In this document: positions 3,001 to 6,000 of the stretch, piece after piece | Position numbering within the stretch: the stretch's first letter is position 1 | Layout: every line of letters starts with the position of its first letter | Made by a program: the position numbers | Source: a virus | Taxonomy: Duplodnaviria > Heunggongvirae > Uroviricota > Caudoviricetes | Length of the DNA: 13,028 nucleotides | Virus record (IMG/VR): IMGVR_UViG_2734482780_000013 | Coordinates: 1 to 13,028 of that record | Direction: 5' to 3' (one strand)

Positions 3001-6000
3001 GGAAGTGCCAAAGCCATCTGAGCTTTAATTTTTGGGTCTGCCAGAAGTCCGGCCAGAGTTGTTGGTTTCTCATTATGATGTGCAACTTGGTTACCGGTAG
3101 CCGCTGCCTTAAGTGCATTGATAGACATTTTTTCTCCTTACTTCATTCTGAAGACGCGTTGTGTCGTTGTTGTTTTGAATTTTTCGAATAACTCAGGGTG
3201 TACTGACTGGAATAGCTTCTGGTCGAATCTGTTGCTGATCTGAGATTTCCATGTGCAGAGCGGCTTTCCGTCCAGGGTCAGGACTGAGTGCTCTTGCATG
3301 TACATCTTCAGCTTCTCTTCTGATATAGCTATTTCTTCTTCCAGTGATTTTCTGCGTGACTTCATGTCTCGTAGATCGTTGAATAGTGCGAGTGCCTTTC
3401 CGTCAGCCTCGATACTTGTCCCGGCCTCTTTCTCAAACATCAGCGATACATCGCTTACGCTGGTAGCTTCCGGCGGGTTAAGATTTTTCACTCGGTCCCA
3501 GAAAGCGATTTCTTTTTCTAAGATCGCCTGGATAGTTTCTTCATCACGCTCAACCCGATAGATTCGGAAGTCGTCGCCACCGATAAGCACACCGAAAACG
3601 CATACCTGTTTGTTTGTAACCATCAACCCGTGCATGGCCTGGGCCGTGTAATGCACAGGAATTGCATCTGTCTGGATTTCTCCCCATTCTTTGGCTTTGA
3701 ACGGACTAACTGTTTTTATCTCAATGTTCTCGCCTGACGCTGCTTCTGCATCGATCTCAGCTGCAATAAAATCGTAATCACGGTGGATATAGCGGTTTCC
3801 GCGATGAACGATTTCCATCCCTGTTTCCTCAGAAAGCAGGTCTATTACGTATGGCTCCATACGCTGGCCACGCGTGAAAACTTTCTGCTTGCTTGGGTCT
3901 ACTGGTTTGACACGTGGCTGGACCTTATCCAGATAAACCTCAAGCGGGGTGCGCCATGGGCTAATTCCAAGAATCCCTGCAACATCGCTTCCTCCGATGT
4001 ATTTTGTTCTATCCATGATTCCAGCGTTCCGCATCATGCCGCGTCCCTCTGCCCATCAAGCTGATCAGCCAGATCCCAGCGGGCGATAATTGCCATTGCC
4101 TCGCGCCGGTAGGCATCCATTAGTTCTTCGAACTCAGGGCTGTCTTTAGCGGCCTCCAGTACTTCCTGGCGAACACCTTTGCCTGTTACAACGTCGAAAG
4201 TTGAGGCCAGTTGATGAAGCCGGATACTCTCAATCAGTTCAACTTGTCGGTCATATAGCTGTTCTGACAGGCGGTAGTCCTTGTCGAATGCCAGCATGAT
4301 TTTTTGAAGATTTTTCTGCTGATTAACGTTCATTATCAGCCCTCCCATATCTCGTTATCGTTGGCCACATCGCGAGCTTCTTTGCTGACGAAAGCCCACT
4401 TAATGCCTTCCTGTAAGGTGCGGAACTTCCAGCTCATGAATCCGCATGCAGTAACGCAGTACCAACCGTTGATGATTTTCCACTGCATAATTTGTTACCT
4501 CGGTCTGTTACCGTTGAGGTAATGATTATGCGTATTTGGTTTGATGTCAATAGATATGAGTTAAAAAAATTACCCGCCAGGTAATCGTATAGGCAATAAA
4601 AAAGCCGCCAGAAGGCGGCTTACTTACTGAAAAATATGATTTTATTGTTTGTTTTTTTCGTTCTGGTTGATGACAAATTCAATGTAACTTTCGATCTTTG
4701 CTTTCTCGGTTTCGGGTAACAATGCGTAGCGCGAGCGGTCATAGTTGATGGTCGCAGGGTCGTGCGGGTGAATCAGTAATTCATAGCCATGACGCCCGAA
4801 TGCGGATGCAACATTCTCCAGGGTGGAAATGGAAACGCTGACCTCATTGTTTAACAGGCGGCTGATTGTCACCTGGGCGACGCCGGATGCGCGGTGAAGT
4901 TTTCCCTGTGTTGAAAGGTCGCGGCTTTCGCTCATCCAGCGTTCCAGGTTGTGAGCCGCCAGCTGACCAATGTCGCTTGGGCCGACAGGCTGAAAACCTT
5001 CCTGAGAAAGCGAGCGATCGATATCAAGCCAGTTACGGGGTTTATTGGCGGCAGCTTCAATTTTTCGCGCAACCTGGTCGCCGATAACCTTCTTGCCAAG
5101 AGCCCAGCGGTTTACCAGATTTGCCTGAGTTCCAAGTTTTTCTGCCATCCGCGTCTGAACACCATTGAATTCACGGTCGATCAAGTCGTTGAGATTTTGC
5201 CTGCGGACGTCCTGGATACTTTTCATTTTCTGGAAAATCGCCTCATATATGAATCAGTAGATGATTCAATTTAAAGCAATATTACCCAACAGGTAAATGC
5301 ACCTCATAGGTAACTACCCTTGATTTTTGTTACCTTATGGGTGAATATTTATTATCTGAAATAAATATCAGGCAATAGCTATGAGCGATAACGGACATTT
5401 CGATTTCAAAAAGCACTGGCTTGCACTCACTCCGGATGAGCGTGAAGCCTTCGCACAGGAAGCCGGAACGACGAGTCACTATATCCAGACTCACTTAACA
5501 GGTAAGCGAAAAATGCCAGGTAAAGTATTGATGAATGGGCTTTTTAAAGCCTGTAAAACAAGACAATGGCTGCGCTCAAAAGCAGAACTGGCATACTTCT
5601 TCTACTCATGATATCCAGCTACAACCCTCTGTAGACCGCCACCCGGCGGTCTTTTCATATCTATTCGTACCTCAAAGGTAATAAAAAACCAAATCTGGTT
5701 GATCTTTTTTTTGTGTCAGCACAAAATAACCGTAATCCCAATACTAATAACAGGGCTTACCATGGAAATCATTACACGTATTGATGCCGCAAAGCGCGGA
5801 CTTAAACGCTACTACACCGGAAAACCATGTAAGCACGGACATGACAGTGAACGCTGGGTTTACAACGGACACTGTGTTGAGTGCACCATGGAATCAAACC
5901 GTCGTATCAGGGCAGAGATTAAGCAGATCATGATTAATTCCTCCCCACAACATTCAAGCTGATAGCGGAGATTAATCATGAGCAGACATGCAACAGATTG

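Follow-up and report, generated by a model that had tools for sequence, protein, structure and literature searches.

Probable SPC32H-type repressor switch in a phiV10/epsilon15-like prophage remnant that lacks an antirepressor gene in its 13-kb window

Repressor gene and features of the immunity region

We analysed the immunity region of a prophage in a stretch of viral DNA of 13,028 nucleotides (Caudoviricetes; IMG/VR record IMGVR_UViG_2734482780_000013, positions 1 to 13,028), which is called the window below. The region is centred on a repressor gene, rep, which is divergent from a small Cro-like gene and is flanked at both early promoters by copies of the palindrome TTACC-N5-GGTAA (N5, any five bases). 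Its sequence places the window among the prophages of the phiV10/epsilon15 group (genus Uetakevirus), and with a probability of about 85% the region is the lysis-lysogeny switch of this prophage, composed of a Rep protein of the SPC32H type and TTACC-N5-GGTAA operators. Through blastn, positions 4034-6087 of the window were found to be 97.7% identical to positions 31479-33532 of phiV10 over 2,054 bp (47 substitutions), and the phiV10 region contains the same six operators, promoters, and terminators. The immunity region was also present in 562 of 5,426 complete E. coli genomes, about one in ten. Its features are as follows (operators are given without strand).

4508-4522: operator OL1, TTACCGTTGAGGTAA, exact; adjoins the leftward promoter's -10 and spans the probable start of transcription; position and half-sites kept in seven relatives
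4522-4550, minus strand: putative leftward early promoter (PL-like); -35 TTGACA at 4550-4545, 17-nucleotide spacer, -10 AATCAT at 4527-4522; 10/12 in a consensus scan
4570-4584: operator OL2, TTACCCGCCAGGTAA, exact; 62 bp from OL1, upstream of the PL -35
4602-4621, minus strand: intrinsic terminator 3' of rep (terminator scan; annotated at the same place in phiV10)
4642-5226, minus strand: rep, repressor of 194 amino acids (identity with phiV10 gp40, PDB homology, Pfam)
4645-4770 (approximate), minus strand: Rep residues 153-194, tetramerisation and Ant-binding domain by homology
4771-4962 (approximate), minus strand: Rep residues 89-152, middle dimerisation domain with a helix-turn-helix (HTH) fold, by homology
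5017-5226 (approximate), minus strand: Rep residues 1-70, DNA-binding HTH by homology
5282-5296: operator closest to rep, TTACCCAACAGGTAA, exact; half-sites invariant in seven relatives
5299-5313: middle operator, GCACCTCATAGGTAA, GCACC...GGTAA, two mismatches; 17 bp from the 5282-5296 site
5320-5355, plus strand: putative rightward early promoter (PR-like), from consensus scan and conservation
5330-5344: operator over the PR spacer, TTACCTTATGGGTGA, TTACC...GGTGA, one mismatch; counterpart 30-31 bp from the middle operator in 7/7
5381-5611, plus strand: Cro-like small HTH protein of 76 amino acids (phiV10 gp41, epsilon15 gp39); PHROG 35 "transcriptional repressor", E=6e-13
5633-5652, plus strand: intrinsic terminator 3' of the Cro-like gene (terminator scan; annotated in phiV10)
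5667-5681: sixth operator, GTACCTCAAAGGTAA, GTACC...GGTAA, one mismatch; 3' of the Cro-like terminator and before the next rightward unit
5762-5962, plus strand: homologue of phiV10 gp42 and epsilon15 gp40, 66 amino acids; PHROG 1081, E=8e-43, and phiV10 annotation

The Rep protein of the window is 100% identical to gp40 of phiV10 and to the repressors of vB_EcoP_ZX5, phiv142-3, PAS61, and O157 typing phages 9 and 10, and all of the 12 nucleotide differences between rep and its phiV10 counterpart are synonymous. When the ZX5 repressor was overexpressed, no free phage was found, and transcripts of endolysin and holin were reduced by 99.99% and 99.97%, respectively (PMC9782041), which is direct evidence that the identical protein acts as a lysogeny repressor. 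Rep is also a full-length homologue of SPC32H Rep. In tblastn, the two proteins were 41.8% identical over 98% of the length, with 54% identity in the DNA-binding domain, 34% in the middle domain, and 45% in the C-terminal domain; in a phmmer search against PDB, residues 1-190 were aligned with residues 2-197 of 5D50_A (E=4e-42), and residues 89-190 were aligned with 5D4Z (E=4e-20).

PMC9986798, which gives the domain names, divides SPC32H Rep into a DNA-binding domain at the N-terminus, a dimerisation domain in the middle, and a tetramerisation domain at the C-terminus that also contacts Ant. Papers citing the structural work report that the C-terminal domain is p53-like and forms the tetramer, and that Rep binds palindromic sites as a tetramer, its dimers binding DNA weakly. 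At the level of sequence, Rep of the window has the same domain order. The HTH_3 family of Pfam matched two stretches of the protein, the best at residues 106-147, in line with the two HTH-like segments described in an earlier note on this DNA and with the GenBank note for phiV10 gp40, which already records "two helix-turn-helix motifs"; given this domain description of SPC32H Rep, however, the second segment corresponds to the middle dimerisation domain and not to a second DNA reader. Peptidase_S24 was not among the Pfam matches of Rep even at E<=1, in agreement with the earlier note, which saw no autocleavage domain, and the C-terminus is homologous to the domains of 5D4Z. The designation of the locus as an immunity region in the earlier note is likewise supported.

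Operators, promoters and the proposed switch

The comparison covered seven immunity regions, with Rep proteins of 42-100% identity, namely those of the window, phiV10, the Enterobacter phages Tyrion and BUCT554, the Klebsiella phage BUCT711, and the Salmonella phages SPC32H and epsilon15. In the whole window, exact TTACC-N5-GGTAA sequences occur at 4508-4522, 4570-4584, and 5282-5296, compared with 0.01 expected, and none of 200 window shuffles reached three. All five operator copies listed in the earlier note were recovered at their positions (three exact and two degenerate), and the copy at 5667-5681 had been overlooked. The left pair, 62-63 bp apart, brackets an invariant TTGACA -35 in all seven regions; epsilon15, SPC32H, and the Klebsiella type have an additional third left operator, so that SPC32H has three left operators compared with two in the window. 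In all seven regions, the three sites of the divergent region are spaced by 17 and then 30-31 bp, and the left half of the middle operator is GCACC in all phiV10-type relatives and TTACC at the same position in the epsilon15 and Klebsiella types. The sixth operator is kept about 54-56 bp past the stop codon of the Cro-like gene in six of the seven. A match with two mismatches at 5491-5505, within the Cro-like gene, was not taken as an operator and probably arose by chance, because it was not found in the Tyrion, BUCT554, and epsilon15 types.

Across the seven regions the half-sites are constant and N5 varies freely. Between the window and phiV10, none of 60 half-site positions and 3 of 30 N5 positions are changed; at OL2, for example, N5 is CGCCA in the window and CGTTA in phiV10 with unchanged half-sites. 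The NLVNRW sequence of the Rep recognition helix is invariant in all seven regions. On these comparative grounds, the combination of conserved half-sites and an invariant recognition helix is characteristic of functional operators that the N-terminal HTH recognises. The GenBank record of epsilon15, a phage with a different host and a 42% identical repressor (gp38), annotates ATTACC-N5-GGTAAT as "protein_bind: repressor" at four positions, three of them left of the repressor gene and the fourth before the tailspike gene, which agrees with the assignment of the palindromes to the repressor in the earlier note; the three sites between the repressor gene and gp39 are unannotated in that record, though present in the sequence.

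The first residues of the recognition helix (Rep 33-35) are TQA in phiV10, Tyrion, and BUCT554, RSQ in epsilon15 and SPC32H, and KSA in the Klebsiella phage. The N5 bases include G/C in the TQA-type phages, often as ..CAGGTAA, and are A/T-only in the epsilon15 types; those of SPC32H are A/T-only, whereas those of the window contain G/C. From this sequence comparison, the operator N5 and Rep residues 33-35 may be the seat of immunity specificity.

In the whole phiV10 genome, 14 TTACC-N5-GGTAA sites were found at up to one mismatch, compared with 0.6 expected. Twelve of them are intergenic (6.5% of the genome) and lie before p06, ant, the tailspike gene, the holin cassette, int, and p45, and at PL and PR, and the other two are at the annotated 5' end of terS. 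Because predicted sites precede them, Rep seems to act directly on nearly every phiV10 transcription unit. A second phiV10 pair, at 35070 and 35132, is exactly 62 bp apart and repeats the OL1-OL2 geometry, and a pair in SPC32H lies at 35972 and 36034. Such 62-bp operator pairs are suggestive of Rep binding DNA as a tetramer.

The leftward candidate promoter containing TTGACA, proposed in the earlier note, was recovered by the consensus scan on the minus strand between the two left operators, and its -35 is invariant in seven relatives. For the rightward promoter, the -35 candidates are TTGATT at 5320-5325, which is invariant in relatives, and TTGTTA at 5327-5332, and the -10 candidates are GAATAT at 5343-5348 and TATTAT at 5350-5355. 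The sequence TTGATTTTT at 5320-5328 is invariant in seven relatives and likely marks the rightward -35, in which case the 5330-5344 operator would fill the spacer; the alternative from the scan, TTGTTA with TATTAT, is also overlapped by this operator. The 5282-5296 operator overlaps a weak candidate -35 and spacer of the putative promoter of rep itself. The pairs TTACCT/TAAATT and TTGGGT/AATCAT over this operator were read by eye as weak candidates and were unconfirmed by the scan.

By homology to SPC32H, the N-terminal HTH of Rep would read the TTACC half-sites, the middle HTH-fold domain would dimerise, and the C-terminal domain would give tetramers; since a tetramer would contain two DNA-binding pairs, it could hold two palindromes at once. 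Rep at OL1 and OL2 would shut the leftward promoter, which is predicted to drive two small genes, the exonuclease gene, and the RecT gene. Occupation of the three sites in the divergent region would close the rightward promoter and probably let Rep regulate its own gene, and the sixth site would guard the next rightward unit. The window resembles SPC32H, whose Rep/Ant switch (Kim & Ryu 2013; Kim et al. 2016) is represented by PDB 5D50 and 5D4Z, in domain order, half-sites, site layout, and gene order. It also resembles the lambda CI/LexA-type arrangement in its divergent repressor and Cro-like genes and its palindromic operators over PL and PR, three of them in the divergent region; unlike that type, Rep lacks an S24 autocleavage domain, and its homologue is described as inactivated by an antirepressor and as forming a tetramer through the p53-like C-terminal domain. 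This type of switch is already known: the identical protein has been deposited, the motif is annotated in epsilon15, and the antirepressor mechanism has been structurally solved in a homologue.

Antirepressor of intact relatives and deletion in the window

In SPC32H, the ant gene is divergent from the tailspike gene, with an exact LexA box, CTGTATAAACATACAG, and a single Rep operator upstream. The same arrangement was found in phiV10, with CTGTATAAATACACAG and TCACCTGAAAGGTAA upstream of p24, and the LexA box pattern CTGT-N8-ACAG is exact before ant in both phages. The p24 protein is 88% identical to SPC32H Ant, and of 36 enterobacterial phage records with a Rep homologue, 35 also gave an Ant homologue in tblastn. 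During the SOS response, SPC32H Rep is reportedly not cleaved; the sibling phage SPC32N is said to be lytic owing to a point mutation in the ant LexA box, and the Ant of Uetakevirus is said to be a small protein structurally distinct from the LexA-controlled antirepressors of coliphage 186 and the Gifsy prophages.

According to papers citing the SPC32H structural work, tetrameric Ant captures two Rep dimers and thereby breaks the Rep tetramer, and a review names Lemire 2011 and Kim & Ryu 2013 as the source for antirepression under LexA control in Salmonella prophages. After DNA damage in intact relatives, LexA would leave the box before ant, and the small Ant protein would then be made, separate the Rep tetramers, and remove Rep from DNA, with Rep itself remaining uncleaved. 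The earlier note had reasoned that induction is probably not by direct RecA-stimulated cleavage, and this is supported by the lack of an S24 domain in Rep and by the inactivation of its homologue SPC32H Rep by Ant (PDB 5D50 and citing papers). Tum of coliphage 186 and the antirepressors of the Gifsy prophages follow the same logic as the intact relatives: the SOS response removes LexA, the antirepressor is made, and a non-cleavable repressor is inactivated.

The Ant genes of phiV10 (20543-20800) and SPC32H (19676-19936) encode the 88% identical proteins, compared with 42% identity of the partner Rep proteins and 34% in the middle domain, a striking gap in divergence. Several phage records gave two or three places in tblastn for Ant. 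In phiV10, the C-terminus of the Bro-N protein p23 (19646-20230), YRSLIHSPSGVLGLTEHSLLM, resembles the N-terminal part of Ant, FTERIHTPGGVRSLVEGSHLM, and the 'ORF4 anti-repressor' assayed in the ZX5 paper is of the Bro-N type; because of these two observations, phiV10-type phages may carry two antirepressors.

The window copy differs from the phiV10 group in that it lies in a deleted prophage without ant, the Bro-N protein, replication genes, and virion genes, and SPC32H likewise has ant where the window has none. Two features adjoin the deletion junction.

5978-6090, plus strand: 5' stump of a DnaT-like replication gene, stopping at the deletion junction 6085-6090
6102-8573, plus strand: tailspike gene, now fused behind the putatively Rep-controlled rightward early operon

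The blastn match with phiV10 ends at window position 6087 (phiV10 33532), inside the dnaT-like gene, and resumes at 6085 (phiV10 20979), eleven bases ahead of the tailspike ATG at 6102; matches with E. coli genomes stop at 6087-6090. The absent interval corresponds to phiV10 33533-39104 plus 1-20978, equivalent to about 26.5 kb; it contains the genes for replication, every head and tail gene, p23, ant, the LexA box, and one operator. The tailspike gene's own promoter is missing upstream in the window, and at the junction (6085-6101) the dnaT-like gene breaks off near codon 37 and runs into the tailspike gene's ribosome-binding site and ATG. Against phiV10, the tailspike gene matched only in its first ~500 nucleotides (82%), so that the receptor-binding part has been swapped.

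When SPC32H Ant, phiV10 p24, and phiV10 p23 were used as tblastn queries, no homologue was found in the window. A scan of the window for LexA boxes with one mismatch allowed gave 7 matches compared with 4.3 expected by chance, none of them credible; an exact CTGT-N8-ACAG at 7110-7125 lies inside the tailspike gene and was rejected as a LexA regulatory site. The window thus has Rep and its operators and lacks a LexA-boxed ant in the same element. The simplest reading of this sequence is a defective prophage whose repressor is no longer liftable in cis. Because the deletion removed ant and the LexA box, the remnant probably cannot induce itself; Rep would then probably be a permanently 'on' immunity protein, and only Ant from another resident Uetakevirus prophage could lift repression.

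Alternative readings, neighbouring genes and significance

Other readings of the palindromes and of the repressor were weighed against binding by the N-terminal HTH of Rep. That the palindromes serve mainly the Cro-like protein, or some other factor, would fit the Cro-like protein's HTH motif GTTSHYIQ, which is invariant across relatives like the half-sites, and the sharing of operators by lambda Cro and CI. However, the epsilon15 record assigns the sites to the repressor, and the phiV10 sites lie before nearly every transcription unit as expected of a prophage master repressor, so that we consider this very improbable; shared use by the Cro-like protein would complement binding by Rep and not exclude it. 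Two HTH_3 matches per chain could also mean that both HTH domains read DNA, a single Rep chain or dimer covering the palindrome with two different heads, but the sites are symmetric with identical half-sites and the two recognition helices differ (QANLVNRW and QVTISRLL). With the second segment described as the dimerisation domain in SPC32H, and the middle domain falling to 34% identity where the half-sites are fixed, reading by two heads would be a most surprising outcome. RecA-stimulated self-cleavage, the standard model for lambdoid repressors, would in Rep have to use a cryptic site that is not of the S24 type, and it received no support from these analyses; the lack of an S24 match at E<=1, the alignment of the C-terminal part of Rep with the dimerisation and tetramerisation domains of 5D4Z, and the conserved LexA-boxed ant in the genus argue against it, leaving it a negligible probability.

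The earlier note had further compared the locus with RacR, YdaS, and YdaT of Rac, and had supposed that the Cro-like gene may be toxic when derepressed. In an arrangement of this kind, the repressor would be an essential guardian that silences a toxic Cro-like or YdaS-YdaT-type neighbour and could not be deleted. The window does resemble Rac: both are defective prophages in which a small HTH gene is divergent from the gene of a non-cleavable HTH repressor. The repressor of the window is conserved under purifying selection, and two small genes of unassigned function lie behind PL. The N-terminal HTH of Rep also matches Pfam YdaS_toxin weakly (residues 21-61, E=3e-4, 21 bits, under the 30-bit cut-off). 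The AlphaFold2 model of the Cro-like protein is a five-helix bundle (predicted local distance difference test score 81.6), for which Foldseek gave XRE/lambda-repressor-like HTH domains as the closest folds, all at E>1, with YdaS of CP-933P as the second-best neighbour (TM 0.62, E=1.1, not significant). On this model and the gene position, "Cro-like" is a reasonable name for a fold class and designates no specific family. However, Rep, the Cro-like protein, and the gp42 homologue had no BLASTP similarity to K-12 RacR, YdaS, and YdaT (best RacR E=4.8; no alignment for YdaS and YdaT), so that the analogy is not borne out by any detectable sequence relationship for the three proteins. The Cro-like protein had no Pfam YdaS or YdaT match, the YdaS match lying on the repressor and reflecting a generic HTH only. 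Rep is moreover a full-length homologue of a different, structurally solved family, and these genes are expressed upon induction in the intact relatives, which are viable temperate phages. We therefore regard a guardian role for Rep as improbable, and toxicity of the Cro-like protein as unsupported.

Several points weigh against the interpretation of the region as an SPC32H-type switch in an ant-less remnant. Rep binding, the roles of the promoters, bridging by tetramers, and non-inducibility in this copy are what we infer from sequence and homology, and the promoter of rep itself was not found by the consensus promoter scan. Because Rep is 42% identical to SPC32H Rep, and 34% in the middle domain, the tetramer geometry and the sensitivity to Ant are extrapolated. 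The details of the SPC32H mechanism come second-hand, from citing papers. The deletion junction was absent from all of the 5,426 complete E. coli genomes and, in an exact search, from the GTDB species representatives, so that it may be a private deletion or an assembly mis-join. As the window covers 13 kb, an ant gene could also lie elsewhere in the host genome.

Outside the immunity region, the leftward operon is mosaic (192-1939 and 2355-4037 of the window) and contains an MT-A70 methyltransferase gene and separate genes for RecT and a YqaJ-type exonuclease. The phiV10 record annotates a RecE-RecT fusion, and the gene content of the window, with RecT and exonuclease separate, resembles that of SPC32H. 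The gene of a DGQHR (DndB-like) protein at 836-1939, also in this operon, had no phiV10 DNA match. On the other side, an AT-rich acyltransferase gene (8645-9781, plus strand, GC content about 0.35) stands in place of oac, which lies on the minus strand in phiV10, and is probably cargo for another kind of O-antigen modification. The right end of the window (11865-13028) matched 5,422 of the 5,426 E. coli genomes, and because it is chromosomal the prophage boundary (attR) is placed near 11,800-11,900. Its two open reading frames, of 179 amino acids and of 171 amino acids (lipoprotein-like, running off the window end), we take to be chromosomal yfgI and yfgH, and this is presumably the guaA attB side, which phiV10-like phages use.

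The loss of ant in the remnant and the half-sites that stay constant across the genus, despite 42% identity of the Rep proteins, are the two points of note. In RefSeq, rep is labelled only "helix-turn-helix domain-containing protein", and the gene can now be named as an SPC32H-type Rep with defined operators. We tentatively suggest, as a possibility that we consider doubtful, that the remnant is a domesticated non-inducible immunity cassette, which would protect against superinfecting phiV10-like phages at no risk of self-induction: intact Rep and operators are kept and ant is lost, Rep types of 42-100% identity share the TTACC half-sites, and Ant is 88% conserved. If this is true, Ant of a co-resident phage could derepress the remnant in trans and give rise to cross-talk between prophages, and the specificity of immunity may reside in the N5 or inner bases and the first recognition-helix residues (TQA, RSQ, and KSA). 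The ant-less remnant is a small natural example in which the trigger of induction is gone and the repressor is retained, and it bears on the prediction of prophage inducibility and of immunity to phiV10-like phages, which are used for detection and typing of O157.

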